IMG/VR virus record: IMGVR_UViG_3300036852_000742
Coordinates: 17,121-81,120 of that record
DNA: 64,000 nt
Source of the DNA: a virus
Direction: 5' to 3' (one strand)
The notes under the pieces were generated by a model. That model saw only the letters and a program-made list of their open reading frames with translations. It was not told the DNA's origin and searched no databases. Below, in pieces: positions 3,425 through 64,000 of this stretch. Numbering within the stretch: position 1 is the first letter of the stretch; each line of letters starts with the position of its first letter. The position numbers and the translations under genes were made by a program.

Positions 3425-4453
3425 TCACGCCGATTTCGCCGCCGAGAACATGGCGTGCCGACTGCGACTGGGGACTGCCGAGACAACGCGGACAGGGTCC
3501 ACGGCATCATCCCCAACCTGCTCAGAGCGACACGGACCACAGCTCCCCTCGAACTGCCCGCGATGGCCACGCCTGCACGGAGCCCGCGCCGGGGCAGGCA
3601 CATCCGGCGCAGGGAGCGTGCCCAGGTTCTCAGGCTGTAGCCGCCACCGAGCCGCGCCGAACACCGTCGACGCCGAGTCGTACCGCTCGCCGAGGATCCC
3701 GGCCAACAGCTTCGGCGACCAACCAGCGTCCAGTGCGTTCACAACCAGCCCAGCCAACTCGGCAGCGTTCGCCCCCCGTGGTTGGCGGGCCTTCGGCACC
3801 GACGCCAGCCGGTACGCGTCCGCAAGGACGATCTCTGCCGTCTCGGTTTGCTCCAGGGTTGGCACCACCACCTCCACCGGTTCGATTGGTGGTTGGTCGG
3901 TGAGCGTCTCTGGCTGTGGTGGTGGTGGTTCTAGGTCTTGGTTCTTCTCAACTACTAGTTCTTCTTCTCTATGTGGTGCGGATGAGCCATTTATGGGTGA
4001 GCCGTCGACGGATGAGCCATGGATGGCTGATCCGTGTATGGTTCCGTCCCAATCGTCTGTTTCGTTACCACCCCCCTGTAACTGGGGCATGGTCTGACCT
4101 GCGAAAACGGGCCGGAAGCTGACGTCCCACCGCCAGACGAACTTGCCAGTCTCAGGATCGTTGGTTCGGGTCTGTCGTAAATGTCCACGATTGCGTAGGC
4201 CGCGCAGCACCGTATCGACTGCTGCCCTCCCCAACTCCGGGGCGAGCCTGTCAATCCGCTGCCGGGAGCACCTGTACCCCGACTTCATCGTCAGCAGCGC
4301 CGCGAGCAGCGCCCGCTCACGCAGCGTCATCCCTTGGAAGCTGACACCAAGAGCCTTGTCGTCGTCGCCACGGTGGAGAGCGTTCGGCGAGATCAGGTAC
4401 CTGTCGGCGAGGGACTCGGCAAACACCGCAATCTCGATGTCGCCGCCGCTCAC
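3425..4453 (-). CDS. putative replication initiator (HTH, lambda O-like layout)
   Basis: N-terminal wHTH-like region (ELGRAAVDTVLRGLRNRGHL), central repetitive linker coinciding with 15-bp DNA repeats and an AT-rich tract. Confidence 0.6.
   Translation of the reverse strand: MSGGDIEIAVFAESLADRYLISPNALHRGDDDKALGVSFQGMTLRERALLAALLTMKSGYRCSRQRIDRLAPELGRAAVDTVLRGLRNRGHLRQTRTNDPETGKFVWRWDVSFRPVFAGQTMPQLQGGGNETDDWDGTIHGSAIHGSSVDGSPINGSSAPHREEELVVEKNQDLEPPPPQPETLTDQPPIEPVEVVVPTLEQTETAEIVLADAYRLASVPKARQPRGANAAELAGLVVNALDAGWSPKLLAGILGERYDSASTVFGAARWRLQPENLGTLPAPDVPAPARAPCRRGHRGQFEGSCGPCRSEQVGDDAVDPVRVVSAVPSRSRHAMFSAAKSA
3930..4040. repeat. four 15-bp degenerate tandem repeats plus AT-rich tract; candidate replication origin
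   Basis: gatgagccatttatg/ggtgagccgtcgacg/gatgagccatggatg/gctgatccgtgtatg at 3981-4040, next to AT-rich 3930-3975. Confidence 0.55.
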
Positions 4454-17108: not shown

Positions 17109-17752
17109 ACACCCGGCCGCGTGACTCGCAACGCTCCCGCCTGTACAAAGCGGAGCATGTCCTGCTCATGTACGGGGAGAACGCGTTCGGCAGCAACACC
17201 GACACCCAACGGTGGGTGGACCGGGTACTCGGGGAGCGCTGGTTCCGGTCCCGCTGGCAACTCCCCACCCTTCCGGTGACTCCCGGTCGGGGCGGCACCG
17301 CCACCTCATGGGGCGGGCGGATCACCGTCGGGCCCACGGCACGCAACCCGGGCATCGTCCTCCACGAGATCGCCCACGAGATCATCCGCGTGACCCCTCG
17401 CGGCCCATACGCCTCCCACGGCCCTGAGTTCGCATCGGTGCTGTTGTTCCTGGTGCGGCAGGTGATGGGCCCCGCCCAGGCCAACGAGCTGCGGTTGGCG
17501 TTCGTCCGCGAGCGGGTCCGGCACCGTGCCGGCTGGGTGGTCCCAGCACCCCGCTATGACGTACCCACCCAGTCGACGGTGCAGGCCGCCGCCCGTAGGG
17601 AAGCCGCCCGCCCGGTCACACGCGCCGAGGCGCTAGCGGCGGATGACGTCTTGCGCCGGCTGGTCCGGGCCGGCAAGTTCGGCCCTGCGGGCTCCGCCAC
17701 CCGCAACCACGCCCTCGAAACCGCCCGCACCCTCACCCGGGAGACGCTATGA
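17105..17752 (+). CDS. HEXXH metallopeptidase-like protein
   Basis: RDSQRSRLYKAE...VLHEIAHE...HGPEFA. Confidence 0.75.
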   Translation: MNTRPRDSQRSRLYKAEHVLLMYGENAFGSNTDTQRWVDRVLGERWFRSRWQLPTLPVTPGRGGTATSWGGRITVGPTARNPGIVLHEIAHEIIRVTPRGPYASHGPEFASVLLFLVRQVMGPAQANELRLAFVRERVRHRAGWVVPAPRYDVPTQSTVQAAARREAARPVTRAEALAADDVLRRLVRAGKFGPAGSATRNHALETARTLTRETL

Positions 17753-58633: not shown

Positions 58634-60100
58634 TCAGTCTCGGTGAGCACTGATCGCCTTGGTCTCTAGATAGTGCCCGAGCCCTTCTGGCCCCAGCTCC
58701 CGCCCGATGCCAGAGTCTTTGTATCCACCCAGCGGGGTGTTCACGCCGATCGGCGCACCGTTGACCTGGACGGTACCGGCCCGGATCTGACGGGCCAGAC
58801 CTCCGGCGCGGTACGAGTCGGAGGTCCATACACCTGCGTCGAGTCCGTACGGCGAGTCGTTGGCCAGGTCGACAGCCTCCTGGTCGGAGTCGAACGGGAT
58901 GACGGCCAGGACCGGGCCGAAGACTTCCTCCCGGGCGATCGGCATGGCGTTGTTGACACCGGTGAAGATGGTCGGCTGCACGTACCAGCCTGTGTGCAGC
59001 CCGGCCGGGCGTTGGCCGCCACGGACCAGGGTCGCACCGGCCTCTACTGCGCCGTGGATGTAGCGCTCGACCTGATCGCGTTGTCGTTTGCTGACCAGCG
59101 GCCCGACCTCGGTGACCGGATCGGTCGGGTCGCCGATCGGCATGCTGTCCACCAGCCCGACGAGCCGGTCAACGAACTGGTCATGTAGGGAACGGTGGAC
59201 CAGCAGGCGGGTGTGGGCCGAGCAGATCTGCCCCGTGTTGGCCAGGGACGCGCCCTTGAGCGCGGGCACGACCTGATCCAGGTCGGCGTCGTCACAGATG
59301 ATCGCCGCCGATTTGCCACCAAGCTCCAGCGACACCCGCCGCAGGTTGTCCCCGCACATGGCGGCGATGCGCCGGCCGACGGCGGTCGACCCGGTGAACG
59401 CGACCTTGTCAACATCGGGATGGGCGACCAGGTACTCGGCGACCACCCCGTTGCGGCGCACCGGGACAACGTTGAGCACCCCGGCAGGCAAGCCCACGTC
59501 GTCACACACACGGGCCAGCAGCATCGCGTCCAGAGGCGTCTCAGCGGCCGGCTTGACCACTACTGTGCAACCCGCCAGCAGGGCCGGGGCCAGCTTCATG
59601 ATGATGGTCTTCTGCGGCATGTTCCAGGGCACGATCGCGGCGACGACTCCCACCGGCTCACGGATCACTAAGGCGCTGCCGGTGGCGTCATCTCGGCGCT
59701 CTGCCCAGGTGTACCGGCCGGCCAGGTCCACGTAGTACCGGAGGATCGCGACCGGATCCGGGACCTGCCGGGTCTTCGACCAGGTGATCGGGCAACCCAT
59801 CTCGGCGGTAATCAGTTCGGCCATCGTGTCGGCGTACCGCTCGTACAGGGTGACGATGCGGGACAGGACACCGGCCCGGTCGACTGGGCTGGACCGGGGC
59901 CAGACACCCTGATCGAACGCCCGCCGGGCGGCCGCCACAGCCCGATCAACGTCGCCTCGACCAGCGTCGGGAACGTACCCGAGGGCCTGTTCGGTCGCCG
60001 GGTTGACGACCGTGACCGGATCTGCGGTGCCGACCGGCTGGCGCCAGGCCCCGTCGATGTACAGCCGGTCGTACGTGAGCAGGTCCGGGGCGAGCGCCAT
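58634..60100 (-). CDS. NAD(P)-dependent aldehyde dehydrogenase
   Basis: REPVGVVAAIVPWN, FTGSTAVG, LELGGKS, GQICSA, EEVFGPV. Confidence 0.95.
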   Translation of the reverse strand: MALAPDLLTYDRLYIDGAWRQPVGTADPVTVVNPATEQALGYVPDAGRGDVDRAVAAARRAFDQGVWPRSSPVDRAGVLSRIVTLYERYADTMAELITAEMGCPITWSKTRQVPDPVAILRYYVDLAGRYTWAERRDDATGSALVIREPVGVVAAIVPWNMPQKTIIMKLAPALLAGCTVVVKPAAETPLDAMLLARVCDDVGLPAGVLNVVPVRRNGVVAEYLVAHPDVDKVAFTGSTAVGRRIAAMCGDNLRRVSLELGGKSAAIICDDADLDQVVPALKGASLANTGQICSAHTRLLVHRSLHDQFVDRLVGLVDSMPIGDPTDPVTEVGPLVSKRQRDQVERYIHGAVEAGATLVRGGQRPAGLHTGWYVQPTIFTGVNNAMPIAREEVFGPVLAVIPFDSDQEAVDLANDSPYGLDAGVWTSDSYRAGGLARQIRAGTVQVNGAPIGVNTPLGGYKDSGIGRELGPEGLGHYLETKAISAHRD

Positions 60101-60104
60101 CCTT

Positions 60105-60662
60105 CTACACCGTCCATCCGTTGTTGAACCCAGACTGGGCGGCCCGCTTGAGCATGTCACCCCGGTCCGCGAGACGGTCGACCTCCTCCTCGTCCATCTC
60201 CAGCCGCCGGCCGATCTCTTCCGGGGTCATCCCGAGCCCGAGCAGGTCCGCCACGATGTCAGCCATCCCCAGGACATGGTGGGTGCCCCGGGCCCGGTTG
60301 TGGCGCACGGTCGCTAGCCGGGCGAGCGCCTGGTCCGGCTGCACCAGCTCAACCGTCGGCACATACCCGGCGGTAAGCGCGAACACCTGCGGGTCGGCTG
60401 AGGCCATCCATCGGTGGTAGCCATCCACGATCTCGTAGAGTGGCCCGGCCCCGTCTTCACCCTCCTCGTGGATCACGATGGGCTGGGTCCAGCCATTCTC
60501 CAGGATCGACTTCCTGAGCAGCCGACGCTCAGGCGGTGCGGCCTGGTTCGGGTTCCATGTGTTCGCCCGTAGCCGGTCGCGTGAGATCCACCGGACCGTA
60601 GAGATCGGCTGGCAATCGACCGCCGCCGAAGCCTCGCTTGTTGAGCCGATGAAGCTCGTCAT
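60105..60662 (-). CDS. ParB-like / IbrB-family protein
   Basis: ANTWNPN.AAPPE..LLRKSILENGWTQPIV...EIVDGYHR...ATVRHNRARGTH. Confidence 0.88.
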   Translation of the reverse strand: MTSFIGSTSEASAAVDCQPISTVRWISRDRLRANTWNPNQAAPPERRLLRKSILENGWTQPIVIHEEGEDGAGPLYEIVDGYHRWMASADPQVFALTAGYVPTVELVQPDQALARLATVRHNRARGTHHVLGMADIVADLLGLGMTPEEIGRRLEMDEEEVDRLADRGDMLKRAAQSGFNNGWTV

Positions 60663-61140
60663 AGCATTCCCACTCTTCTGGTCCATACGCGGTCCAGGCC
60701 CGCCCATAGCCTCGGCTGCTGACCCGTCCGAGCGCGTCGATTGTTGCCTGATCCAGCCGCAGCTTGAGGAATCGCAGGAGTACTTGCCAGTGTTCGCGTT
60801 TCGTCACCGCGTACGGCATGACCGCCTCGGCCATCAGGATGGCGTCGATCATCCGATTGACCCGAAGGTGGAAGGCGTCCTGGTGTTTCTCCGGCTTCTT
60901 CTCCTGGTAGGTATAGGCGAGACCCCGGGCGCCGAGCGCTACCAGGACGTTGCCGGCATGACGGATCGTCCGCTCGCAGGTCATACAGAGCTGGAGACGG
61001 ACCATTATCGAGGTCGCGCGGCCTTCGATGCGCTCGCCGCGCCCGTTGCGCTTGTTTTGCGCGCCGAGGCCGATCGACCCTTCGCCATCCCAAAGCCCGG
61101 CTAGCCATGCTCGCTCTGCCACTGTCGCTGTCATTTGCAC
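60529..61140 (-). CDS. LAGLIDADG homing endonuclease (single motif)
   Basis: AWLAGLWDGEGSIGL...PYAVTKREH. Confidence 0.85.
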   Translation of the reverse strand: MQMTATVAERAWLAGLWDGEGSIGLGAQNKRNGRGERIEGRATSIMVRLQLCMTCERTIRHAGNVLVALGARGLAYTYQEKKPEKHQDAFHLRVNRMIDAILMAEAVMPYAVTKREHWQVLLRFLKLRLDQATIDALGRVSSRGYGRAWTAYGPEEWECYDELHRLNKRGFGGGRLPADLYGPVDLTRPATGEHMEPEPGRTA

Positions 61141-61168
61141 ACCGTACTATCAAGGTGCGACTAAACCG

Positions 61169-61255
61169 GTTCCAATCGTTTGCGGACAACGTCTCCCGGG
61201 GCACCCACTCGACGCGGGTCACTGGCTGGGTGTCGACAGATACGGCAGTGGTCAT
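61169..61255 (-). pseudogene. orphaned 5' fragment of the ParB/IbrB gene
   Basis: MTTAVSVDTQPVTRVEWVPRETLSANDWN aligns with VDCQPISTVRWISRDRLRANTWN of the intact copy. Confidence 0.75.
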
Positions 61256-62601
61256 TCGGCGACAGGCTCTCGGGCGTAGGGCGGAACAAGGGCGTGCGGG
61301 TCGGCGGGCTGACGGCCGGGGTGCGCCAGGTCGCCGAAGGTGCCGTCGGTGATCACAGCGGTCAGGTCTTTGGCGTAGCGGTGCCAGTACTTGGGGAGGG
61401 TCCGGCCCTGGTCGTCGGTCATTAGCCGGCCGCCGGTTTGTTTCCGGTTTTTGAAGTCGCCGCGCATCGCAAGCATGAGGAGGAAGTCCCAGGACAGGCC
61501 TGTGCCCGGGTGCGGCGCGGTGGGTGCGATCGGGTCGGTGGTCTTGCGGTAGTGCAGGGTGATCTCGTCCCGGCAGCGGGCGGCGATGAACGCTGACTCG
61601 GTGGGCCGGAACTGCTCCAGATAATGGACGATGAAATCGGGCCAGGGCATGCCGGCGGGTTTGTCGGGCCGGCCCCGGTACGAGTACAGCTCGGTCAAGG
61701 CGTAACGGGACGCTGCCCCAACACCTGGGACACGATCGACCATTTTTTCCCACACGTCCGGGAAACACTGGGCATAGGTGTGGATCTTCTGGAGGGGTTC
61801 CTCACCGAACGCGGGTGAGCAACGCTGGGTGCTCCGGCCAAGGCCGGCCATCTCCAGCCGGTCGTAGGCCCGGTTGTAGTCCCACCCTTTCAACGCGGGG
61901 GCGGTCCATACGTCGTCGGTGGTCCAGTCATAGACCGGGTACGCCTTCCACAGGTTCCCCTGTGATGTGCCAGATGAGTCGAACTTGGTCAGGTAGTTGA
62001 GTTCCCGCCCGGTCTTGGTCACCGCCCTACGCCGTGTCAACGACTCCTGCGCCCGAATGCCCATGAACATGACGCAGTTACCGAGCCGGGGCGGGAACAG
62101 CAACCCGTTGGTGTCGGGTGCGGACAGGCGCGCCTCAGGCGGGTCGATCGGGAACCCGTCCAGGGTCACAAGCGCTTCATCGGGCAACGGCCGGCACCAC
62201 AGGTCGCGGGCCTCCGGCGCCCACGGCCACCAGTACGGGCTCTTACGCGAGCAGGCGTTGCGGTGTTTGAGAGGCAGGCAGTACCACTCCAGGTTGACGT
62301 CGCCGCGTTGGGCGATGCGCCGGACGTACTCCACGGTCTCGAACGGGATGGCTTCCTCGTCCTGGAAGAATGCCCGCAGCGGCAGGTGCCGTTCGTAGCG
62401 CGGGTCGGAGTGGGCTACCTCAAGGACGACCTGCAAGGTGGCGGTGGAGTCTTTGCCGCCGCTGAACGCGACCGCGACGTGGTCGAACCGGTCCAGCACG
62501 AGGGCTGTCCGTTCCAGCGCGAGGGTGTACACATCAGTGTCGAGCGGTCGCTGGCGGAGTGTTGCTTTGGCCTTCGCCGCAGGTGGGGGTTGCTGTTTCA
62601 T
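61252..62601 (-). CDS. PAPS-reductase-family / IbrA-like (DUF3440-type) protein
   Basis: VAFSGGKDS, DEEAI, GIRAQESLTR, YPVYDWTTDDVW, DYNRAYD, WEKMVDRVPG. Confidence 0.88.
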   Translation of the reverse strand: MKQQPPPAAKAKATLRQRPLDTDVYTLALERTALVLDRFDHVAVAFSGGKDSTATLQVVLEVAHSDPRYERHLPLRAFFQDEEAIPFETVEYVRRIAQRGDVNLEWYCLPLKHRNACSRKSPYWWPWAPEARDLWCRPLPDEALVTLDGFPIDPPEARLSAPDTNGLLFPPRLGNCVMFMGIRAQESLTRRRAVTKTGRELNYLTKFDSSGTSQGNLWKAYPVYDWTTDDVWTAPALKGWDYNRAYDRLEMAGLGRSTQRCSPAFGEEPLQKIHTYAQCFPDVWEKMVDRVPGVGAASRYALTELYSYRGRPDKPAGMPWPDFIVHYLEQFRPTESAFIAARCRDEITLHYRKTTDPIAPTAPHPGTGLSWDFLLMLAMRGDFKNRKQTGGRLMTDDQGRTLPKYWHRYAKDLTAVITDGTFGDLAHPGRQPADPHALVPPYAREPVAE

Positions 62602-63200
62602 ACGGTCACCGCCGCGTCCTCGGCTACCGGTCGGGCATCGGGATGGAACGCCCACGATGACAGGTAAGTACCGACGTTGGTCGCCAGACGGTGCAGCGGG
62701 TGGTAGCGGCGGTGGGCGTACATCTGGCCGTCGACGTCGAGCACGACGACAACCCATGATCGGGCGGTGAACACGGCGGCCAGCTTGGCGAGGGTGTCCG
62801 TTGGTGGCACCCCGTGGCCGCGCATCGCAGCGTACGCGGCGGCGAGGGCGTACGAGTCGGTGATCGCGTCTGGTGCCAGGTCGTCAGGGTTGTCGATGAC
62901 CCCGTTGTGCGCGACGGCGTGCGCTCCGGCCAGCGCCGGCTGTAGCTGCTCCGGCGCCTGCCAGTCCCCGACTGTGGCCAGCCGGGCGTGACCAAGGACA
63001 CGGGTGTCGGTGATGGCGGTGAGGGCGTCACGGTGTGGGCCCAGCGGCCCCAGGTGGCGTACACAGACCGGCGGCGTCCCGGGGTTGTATGTGACCCAAC
63101 CACAGCCGTGGGGCCCGCGACGTCCAGCACCCTCCGCCGCTGCCAGCAACAGTTGCGGGTCGGGCGGGCCGACGCCGGTGTAGGCGAAGATCCCGCACAT
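62598..63200 (-). CDS. class II glutamine amidotransferase
   Basis: MCGIFAY...RGPHGCG...GHARLAT...AHNGVI...TDS. Confidence 0.85.
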   Translation of the reverse strand: MCGIFAYTGVGPPDPQLLLAAAEGAGRRGPHGCGWVTYNPGTPPVCVRHLGPLGPHRDALTAITDTRVLGHARLATVGDWQAPEQLQPALAGAHAVAHNGVIDNPDDLAPDAITDSYALAAAYAAMRGHGVPPTDTLAKLAAVFTARSWVVVVLDVDGQMYAHRRYHPLHRLATNVGTYLSSWAFHPDARPVAEDAAVTV

Positions 63201-64000
63201 CAGGTTTTGCCGTTCCGGCTCATCCAATCCGCAGCGGCGGGCAACGTCGCAGCAGCGGCGCGCACCACGGTCGAGTCGATCGCCCAGCACTCTGCCCAAC
63301 CGTGGTCGGGGGAGGTGGTCCACTGGCGGGCAGGCCACGGACCGGTGCCGACCTGGAACCCTCGGGGCCAGTGGTAGCAAGGCGGCAGCGGGATGTTGTG
63401 CCGGTCGATGAGGGCGAAGACCTGCTCGTGGGTCCAGTCGGCCATCGGCGACCAGCGGGTCAGACCGTGACGGTCGGTGTAGCGGTCCTGCCCGTCGCGG
63501 CCGACGAAGTTGCCGTCCTTACGGCGCCGGCCCAACGCCAGCAGCTCCAGCCCCTCACGCTGGAAGTAGACGCGTTGGGCCCGGTGCTGGACGAGGGAGA
63601 ACCAGCGCGGGCCGTGCGCGCCTTGCGGGAACAGCATCGACGGGTGCTTGATGAGCCAGGGCAGGTCGAGCGCGACGGTGACGACTTCGCATCCGGGTGG
63701 CATGTGATCGGTCTGCCAGCGCAGCATCGCCGGCCATTCCAGGCCGATCGTCATACCGACCATGCAGGCTGGTACGCCGGCCTGCTCCATCACGTACCGC
63801 AGCGCCTGGGAGTCTTTCCCGCCGGACCAGGCGTAGGCGATGCGGCGGCCGGCGGCGAGTTCAGCCCGTACCTGCCCGACCGTGGCGGCGGTCAACGCGT
63901 CCAGCTCGACGTCGGTGACGACATCCCGGGCGCGGGCCATCTGCTCTTGCCAGACGAGCGGGTCGGCGATGGACTGCTTGCGGCCAAGTGCTGCCGGCAC
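63200..64000 (-). CDS. second PAPS-reductase-like (PP-loop) protein; start at or beyond window edge
   Basis: AWSGGKDS, LGRRRKDGN, SPMADWTHEQV. Confidence 0.8.
   Translation of the reverse strand: MPAALGRKQSIADPLVWQEQMARARDVVTDVELDALTAATVGQVRAELAAGRRIAYAWSGGKDSQALRYVMEQAGVPACMVGMTIGLEWPAMLRWQTDHMPPGCEVVTVALDLPWLIKHPSMLFPQGAHGPRWFSLVQHRAQRVYFQREGLELLALGRRRKDGNFVGRDGQDRYTDRHGLTRWSPMADWTHEQVFALIDRHNIPLPPCYHWPRGFQVGTGPWPARQWTTSPDHGWAECWAIDSTVVRAAAATLPAAADWMSRNGKT

Follow-up and report, generated by a model that had tools for sequence, protein, structure and literature searches.

A 64,000-nucleotide (nt) stretch of DNA, referred to here as the window, was analysed; it is part of an 81-kb IMG/VR provirus record (IMGVR_UViG_3300036852_000742, positions 17,121 to 81,120). 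It contains an ibrA-ibrB gene pair in which a free-standing homing endonuclease gene (HEG) of the LAGLIDADG type stands between the two genes, and in which the 5' end of the ParB-like gene ibrB is present twice, once as an orphan fragment directly behind ibrA and once, as a diverged copy, at the head of an intact ibrB that overlaps the HEG. All features of the locus lie on the minus strand:

61252–62604, minus strand: ibrA-like gene with a PAPS-reductase domain and DUF3440 (Pfam PF01507 and PF11922; phrog_2302, E 1.7e-77)
61168–61255, minus strand: orphan 5' end of the resident ibrB, 29 codons ending ...LSANDWN (direct reading, tblastn, Smith-Waterman)
60551–61167, minus strand: inserted unit of 617 nt, consisting of leader, HEG and presumed donor ibrB 5' end up to TGGAACC (alignment of orphan and new copy)
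61141–61167, minus strand: 27-nt leader of the insert (direct reading)
60529–61140, minus strand: free-standing single-motif LAGLIDADG endonuclease gene, the HEG (motif, homologues, phrog_5046, AlphaFold 2 (AF2) model, Foldseek)
60105–60662, minus strand: intact ibrB/ParB-like gene with the replacement N-terminus, MTSF...QPISTVRWISRDRLRANTWNPN... (phrog_2159, E 1.4e-52; Pfam ParB_N)
60551–60620, minus strand: new copy of the duplicated 70-nt segment, whose counterpart in the orphan is 61168–61237 (local DNA alignment)
60659–61255, minus strand: orphan ("relay") reading frame of 198 codons (list of open reading frames (ORFs), direct reading)
58634–60100, minus strand: aldehyde dehydrogenase gene, context outside the element (Pfam Aldedh, E 6e-158)

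Two copies of the ibrB 5' end

The ibrA frame is open up to 62757, and alignments with homologues begin from about the methionine at 62604; its product is 57–71% identical to IbrA of the actinomycete loci L039–L055. The ibrA stop codon (TGA, 61254–61252) overlaps an ATG (61255–61253) as ATGA, and this ATG opens MTTAVSVDTQPVTRVEWVPRETLSANDWN, whose similarity to ParB breaks off after TGGAACC (61174–61168). In the leader that follows, TGA and TAG stand in the HEG frame just ahead of the HEG start, and the orphan frame is the only open one. The HEG begins at GTG 61140 (203 aa) or ATG 61134 (201 aa), and its 3' 133 nt overlap the new ibrB ORF in a different frame. The new ibrB starts at ATG 60662 (alternatives at 60686 and 60707), reads on as ...QPISTVRWISRDRLRANTWNPNQAAPPE..., and aligns full-length with closely related ParB proteins of HEG-free loci at 59–67% identity. 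The last 22 nt of the HEG and its stop fall past the insert boundary, in the ibrB codons CCT GAG, the same codons in which the HEG stops in loci L041 and L009. A first-pass annotation, made from the letters of this DNA, had described an orphan ParB start that is ATGA-coupled to the PAPS-reductase stop and breaks at TGGAACC after ...LSANDWN, a LAGLIDADG ORF whose 3' end overlaps a second, diverged ParB N-terminus in another frame, and an orphan frame that stays open for 198 codons and ends in an ATGA at 60659–60662; all of its sequence statements prove correct on direct reading and against the ORF list.

The duplication of the ibrB 5' end did not arise by chance similarity. Compared with the region upstream, the new N-terminus gives a Smith-Waterman score of 78, against a maximum of 41 in 200 shuffles, and tblastn recovers the duplicated N-terminus in the window with an E of 1.3e-4. 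At the DNA level, the orphan and the new copy match at 40 of 70 nt and both end in an identical TGGAACC. As the two copies align and end in this shared heptamer, the insert can be delimited as 61167–60551, 617 nt, a length that is not divisible by three. The duplication is also significant in two other loci, L011 (Smith-Waterman score 110, null maximum 36) and L006 (67, null maximum 35).

Loci without the HEG were collected by ibrA scans, giving 12 distinct loci (L039, L040, L043–L051 and L053, with L052 and L054 being duplicates of two of them), of which the closest to the window is that of Actinoallomurus vinaceus, with an ibrA 71% identical. All 12 have a single ibrB N-terminus, in which ...LSANDWNPN... 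is common; the HEG-free ibrB site of L051, for example, contains TGGAACCCGAAC and ...AACGACTGGAACCCGAACAAG... The ibrA stop and the ibrB start overlap as NTGA (ATGA, GTGA or TTGA) in 8 of the 10 HEG-free junctions examined. The orphan matches the single N-terminus of these relatives at 10–15 of 20 residues, and is slightly closer to the native alleles than the new copy is. Because the HEG-free loci show one N-terminus and the same NTGA overlap, it is the orphan that has the ancestral configuration, and the duplicate, which the first-pass annotation had linked to the endonuclease, is absent from these uninvaded relatives.

The endonuclease and its association with ibrB

The HEG protein carries the motif LAGLWDGEGS at residues 13–22. 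Across its homologues, W12, L13, G15, D18, G19, E20, G21 and K114 do not vary and Q50 hardly does (34 homologues for D18, G19, E20 and G21); the conserved positions include the catalytic GEG. A search of 5.8 billion proteins returned 39 homologues beyond the window's own protein, the closest being P0002 at 69% identity. Against the Pfam family LAGLIDADG_3 (PF14528), the window protein scores below threshold (E 0.019; 15.7 bits versus a cut-off of 22.5 bits), while many homologues at 30–48% identity carry this domain, P0005, P0008, P0014 and P0017 among them. An AF2 model built from the homologue alignment has a predicted local distance difference test (pLDDT) score of 86.5 and places helices (H) and strands (E) in the alpha-beta-beta-alpha-beta-beta-alpha order (H7-20, E21-28, E44-53, H56-68, E74-78, E89-94, H97-110), with the C-terminal tail that overlaps ibrB modelled at low confidence. 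The top Foldseek matches to this model are I-MsoI, I-CvuI and I-CreI, with E values of 2e-7 to 1e-6 and template-modelling (TM) scores of 0.65–0.67 on the target. Since homologues carry PF14528 and the confident AlphaFold model matches I-MsoI and I-CreI, the LAGLIDADG assignment is secure despite the weak Pfam score. The protein also matches phrog_5046 (E 4e-12), a family labelled 'HNH endonuclease', a label that the fold of the window protein contradicts. As modelled, the HEG thus encodes a single-motif LAGLIDADG enzyme of the I-CreI type, presumably a homodimer. No sigma-70-like promoter site for the HEG was found in the leader region.

Among the HEG relatives with at least 33% identity and available flanking DNA, 13 of 14 sit immediately 5' of a ParB/ibrB gene (L005, L006, L007/L041, L008/L042/L055, L009, L010, L011 and L059–L064). 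These loci include the gene order HEG-ParB-ibrA as well as two with a different ParB subfamily. The exception is L056 (SDBT01565134.1, 142–603), where a 153-aa family member, 47% identical to the window HEG, lies in a low-GC (guanine plus cytosine) context with no ParB gene nearby; the HEG family has thus reached at least one further target.

Similarity among the HEGs does not follow that among the neighbouring host genes. Identity to the window HEG is 47% in L005, 46% in L011 and 37% in L041, and ibrA identity runs in the opposite order (44%, 50% and 60%, respectively). Only 2 of 14 related distinct loci carry the HEG, in addition to the window, the other 12 being HEG-free. GC content at third codon positions is 0.75 in the HEG compared with 0.83 in ibrA and 0.87 in ibrB, with a dip in GC over 60500–61200. 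Queries with the HEG returned no match in 401 genomes of the order and two weak matches, neither next to ParB, in 401 genomes of the class (sampled actinomycetes); a scan of genome contigs for more HEG relatives returned nothing. Block-wise identity of ibrB to HEG-free relatives shows no clear donor co-conversion tract downstream of the putative cut. In all, the patchy and incongruent distribution of the HEG and its lower third-position GC fit a mobile gene.

Two side observations concern ibrB as a site of insertion. The protein P0014 (317 aa) is a HEG homologue fused in frame to a full ParB/IbrB (PF14528 and PF02195; ...LKRLNLRGAAKVVSDKVLAQPVSGVQWIDRNDLTANSYNPN...). In L011, ibrB holds a second insert (3620–4237 of IMGVR_UViG_3300012209_000327) of exactly 618 nt, in frame, between QPIVIRE and EIIDGYHRW, and this insert contains a different LAGLIDADG ORF (3715–4239, ...YTAGLIDGEGSIYF...) in another frame. 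The ibrB frame is open through all 206 extra codons at 45% GC, which 3% of synonymous shuffles also achieve; other L011 genes have 17–18 stops in the same offset frame. No Hint domain was found in this insert, and its HEG has no close homologue in IMG/VR. The L011 gene is either dead or translated into an IbrB that contains a 206-aa insertion. Given two different HEGs in one L011 gene and the in-frame fusion in P0014, ibrB, one half of the widespread and functionally unexplained IbrA/IbrB pair, appears to be a homing-endonuclease hotspot. LAGLIDADG-IbrB fusions should therefore be treated with caution before they are called functional domain architectures, as homing to the 5' end of ibrB may have produced them incidentally.

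The aldehyde dehydrogenase gene starts 4 nt past the ibrB stop, and the same gene directly follows ibrB in L007 (3553–5385) and L008 (3898–5433), which suggests that ibrA, ibrB and the aldehyde dehydrogenase gene form a conserved unit. The window region upstream of ibrA (62598–64000) holds two ORFs whose calls share about 180 nt: one resembles class-II glutamine amidotransferases (MCGIFAYTG...), and the other is a second ORF with a PAPS-reductase domain, shorter than ibrA. In several loci of actinomycetes and proviruses (L041:1667–5717, L039:2812–5708, L044 and L045), two to three tandem ibrA paralogues, 57–63% identical to the window ibrA, stand ahead of a single ibrB.

Recurrent scars and the probable route of insertion

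An orphan ibrB start is also retained ahead of the HEG in two further, unrelated loci. In L011 (42% GC) the orphan reads ...QPVNIVEWIHRDNLHANNY, followed past the break by FHV and a stop; its two copies are alike at 52 of 69 nt and the insert measures 626 nt. The orphan of L006 reads ...EVSEAREIKVGLIDPNPWN, followed by AEK..., with copies alike at 39 of 54 nt and an insert of 602 nt. Identity between orphan and new copy is thus 57% in the window, 72% in L006 and 75% in L011. All three loci share the same breakpoint, as similarity ends after TGGAACC in the window, TGGAAT in L006 and TAT in L011, a 4-nt span within the codons of the conserved (W/Y)N^PN box. Cleavage by LAGLIDADG enzymes takes place in the four central bases of the site (PMC6294521) and is typically staggered by 4 nt; since the three breaks fall in a span of this size, the scars plausibly mark the cleavage site in the (W/Y)N^PN codons, with the ends processed slightly differently each time.

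The new copies differ from the orphans next to this position in ways that may bear on protection from the enzyme. At all three loci, the new copy has a different codon just 5' of the W/Y (GAT to ACA, CCC to TTT and AAT to AGC), which may be an immunity change. In addition, the asparagine of (W/Y)NPN is encoded by AAT in 4 of 6 HEG-bearing alleles versus 2 of 12 HEG-free alleles, all from high-GC genomes in which AAT is rare. This comparison covers the window (60549–60557), L041, L042, L009 and L005 against the HEG-free loci, and its alleles are not independent, so that a synonymous change from AAC to AAT in the central bases is only a hint of immunity.

Taken with the association of the HEG family with ibrB, these scars make intronless homing the probable explanation of the locus: a family of free-standing LAGLIDADG HEGs, located immediately 5' of phage and prophage ibrB, would spread together with a replacement 5' end of the gene. 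In ibrB alleles that lack a HEG, the enzyme would cut at the conserved (W/Y)-N^P-N codons, some 90 nt from the gene start. A HEG-bearing allele would then serve as the repair template: the right end would engage through ibrB homology, and synthesis would proceed through the donor's 5' end of ibrB and the HEG into a short leader. The left end could then be resolved in ibrA homology, leaving no orphan (as in L005, L041, L042 and L009), or be joined at or near the cut, leaving one (as in the window, L006 and L011). In this way, the resident ibrB start of the window would survive as the 29-codon orphan, still ATGA-coupled to ibrA. In the window, this left end may have been closed by end joining, or the pre-existing orphan of the donor may have served as the left homology arm; an orphan-bearing allele, being homologous on both sides of the cut, could home precisely, as an intron does. 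The 617-nt cassette would bring a spare copy of the first 30 codons of ibrB, with its start inside the HEG 3' tail in another frame, so that the gene would work unspliced. The data fit both recurrent end joining and the transmission of orphan-bearing cassettes. The analysis shows the anatomy, the endonuclease fold with its catalytic motif, a single N-terminus in uninvaded relatives, one breakpoint recurring at three loci and a patchy, incongruent HEG distribution; we infer the cleavage position, the repair route and the immunity of the new copy. The proposal of the first-pass annotation that a free-standing HEG interrupts ibrB and supplies a new N-terminus by splicing-free homing is supported in these points, and the same architecture recurs at two independent loci.

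Several observations weigh against this account. The deduced cut site draws on no more than three junctions. In the window and in L011, TGG or TAT followed by AAC CCG AAC is still present in the new N-terminus, which leaves the immunity of the invaded allele unaccounted for, and the retention of AAC in both runs counter to immunity through AAT. Four invaded loci (L005, L041, L042 and L009) lack an orphan, which is thus not an obligatory part of the element, and no orphan remnant scores above the shuffle null in their 45–70-nt spacers between ibrA and the HEG. Furthermore, the leaders of the window, L005, L006 and L011 align without conserved sequence, so that a common cassette boundary is not demonstrable.

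LAGLIDADG genes usually reside in introns or inteins. This usual home (PMC8393795) is the argument for regarding the insert as a group I intron or an intein, with the orphan and the remainder of ibrB joined as RNA or protein, but such an explanation has next to no probability here. An Rfam cmscan of 59900–61600 with permissive filters (E up to 1) found no intron, returning only a spurious microRNA match, and Pfam found no Hint domain or intein match on the locus proteins. The HEG fills the insert, with 27 nt before it and its 3' end across the insert boundary, leaving no room for a ribozyme core; the frame of the HEG differs from those of both ibrB parts. A group I intron was therefore rejected for want of an Rfam core and of space, and an intein on account of the 617-nt length, the frame and the missing Hint domain, in agreement with the first-pass annotation, which had seen no room for either. 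Joining the orphan to the downstream gene would also double the N-terminus rather than restore it, and since ibrB remains intact, neither an intron nor an intein is needed. It is also very unlikely that a local tandem duplication or rearrangement unrelated to homing, by which a slip doubled the ibrB 5' end around a HEG already resident between ibrA and ibrB, produced the locus. The resident state that this would require does exist, as the HEG stands between ibrA and ibrB without an orphan in L005, L041, L042 and L009; however, the two copies in the window, L006 and L011 are too diverged for a recent local event, the breakpoints of three independent loci cluster within 4 nt at one set of conserved codons, and the orphan resembles native HEG-free alleles slightly more than the new copy does. 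An equally slight chance is given to domestication, in which the endonuclease-like protein would not be selfish but would work with IbrB, for example as a DNA-targeting partner. The in-frame fusion P0014 and the tight, conserved overlap of HEG and ibrB are in keeping with such a role, but the HEG is patchy among close ibrAB relatives (the 2 of 14 distinct loci plus the window), its similarities are incongruent with those of the host genes, the orphans are insertion scars, L056 carries a family member in a non-ParB context, and most ibrB genes function without the HEG.

A separate question is whether the open frame that crosses the insert has a function of its own. The first-pass annotation had read it as a ribosome relay, in which the orphan start, the 198-codon open frame and the terminal ATGA would pass ribosomes terminating at ibrA to the new ibrB start, thereby preserving translational coupling. 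The frame, which is out of frame with the HEG, does end exactly in an ATGA, its stop (TGA, 60661–60659) sitting with the in-frame ibrB ATG at 60662, and NTGA coupling is the state of most uninvaded junctions examined. The +2 frame of the HEG is closed in the orphan-less homologues L005, L041, L042 and L009, so that its openness in the window is not a general compositional property of the family, and in L006 orphan and HEG share one frame, with the HEG stop overlapping the new ibrB ATG as ATGA, giving an unbroken path. Against a relay, the +2 frame stays open across the 479 nt concerned in 17% of synonymous-codon shuffles of the HEG, the orphan frame of L011 closes three codons past the break, the clade-B loci and L005 lack an orphan and have ibrB starting inside the HEG without a termination-reinitiation overlap, the ATGA coincidence was spotted post hoc, and the sample consists of three orphan loci. 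A selected relay is accordingly unlikely, and the claim of preserved coupling is left unsupported: homologues were checked for stops in the frame, and with L011 closed and four invaded loci orphan-less the relay finds no support as a conserved feature.

A broader proposal is that the leader, the HEG and the replacement 5' end form an evolved splicing-free homing cassette, with the orphan as its left homology arm and the orphan start exploited for expression; ribosomes from the old ibrB start would cross the HEG region and reach the new ibrB start through the ATGA overlap. This proposal is doubtful. In L006, where an orphan::HEG fusion would result, this path is in frame; in the window it is out of frame. 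The second, 618-nt insert of L011, across which the ibrB frame remains open (p ~0.03), lends support to the wider notion that these HEGs preserve open host frames. As a side observation in L006 (2645–3250), the orphan start consists of GGAGG, 4 nt and GTG and is in frame with the HEG; the HEG also has its own AGGAGG and ATG, and its stop overlaps the new ibrB ATG (AGATGAGC). A possible orphan::HEG fusion protein in L006 would be reminiscent of mitochondrial HEGs fused to the upstream exon.

Relation to known homing systems

At the level of the enzyme, the nearest known relatives are I-CreI, I-MsoI and I-CvuI, which share with the window HEG the same fold, a single LAGLIDADG motif with a catalytic acidic residue, and a size of about 160–170 aa plus a disordered tail. 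They differ from it in sequence, with an identity of just 11–18%, and in being encoded in group I introns of ribosomal DNA, whereas the window HEG is free-standing and its putative target is a protein-coding site with weak palindromic symmetry (TGGAACC|CGAACCA in the window).

In its genomic arrangement, the window HEG is closer to the seg and mob genes of T-even phages (SegF, SegG and MobE), which likewise lie outside any intron or intein, adjoin their target gene, and are patchy among related genomes. These free-standing HEGs spread by double-strand-break repair, co-converting flanking markers (PMC2988022, PMC2790892). However, the T-even enzymes are of the GIY-YIG or HNH type rather than LAGLIDADG. 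Moreover, the T4 HEGs are intergenic or divide a gene so that two polypeptides result, as mobE does with nrdA and mobA with gene 60, and they bring no duplicate gene end. Unlike in T4, the target gene in the window remains complete through a donor copy that replaces its 5' end, and the orphan persists as a scar (PMC2988022).

Free-standing HEGs of fungal mitochondria offer the closer parallel, since they enter coding sequence with no intron around them and come with a duplicate of the gene end that they displace; the duplicate restores the ORF, and the former end persists as a pseudogene fragment. Genes of the I-OnuI/I-LtrI type in rps3, and the Allomyces atp6 gene, reportedly combine a free-standing HEG with a duplicated host-gene end in this way. 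The window likewise has a displaced end (orphan 61255–61168), a new 5' end (60662–60551) and a full-length ibrB downstream. Partial duplications of atp9, atp6 and cox1 accompany such HEGs (PMC7487136). The fungal cases mostly concern the 3' end, often with the HEG fused in frame to the host gene; in contrast, the window lies in a bacterial provirus with ibrB as the target, and it is the 5' end that is replaced, downstream of the HEG and overlapping its tail in another frame.

In the literature, covered incompletely, no report was found of intronless homing with a replacement end for ibrB or for phage LAGLIDADG genes. The literature on IbrA/IbrB yielded no link to homing endonucleases, and none was found that joins free-standing LAGLIDADG genes and bacteriophages. 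What appears to be new is the replacement of the 5' end, which makes the locus a prokaryotic variant of a strategy with precedents in T4 phages and in fungal mitochondria. Read as natural footprints, the three scars may point to a cut position of 4 nt within the conserved (W/Y)NPN box of ibrB, a candidate target for a new family of meganucleases that would recognize conserved protein-coding sequence. If the homing account holds, bacterial and phage coding genes can be invaded by free-standing LAGLIDADG genes that need no intron or intein because they carry a spare 5' end, which would extend the intronless homing of T4 and form the mirror image of the fungal mitochondrial trick.

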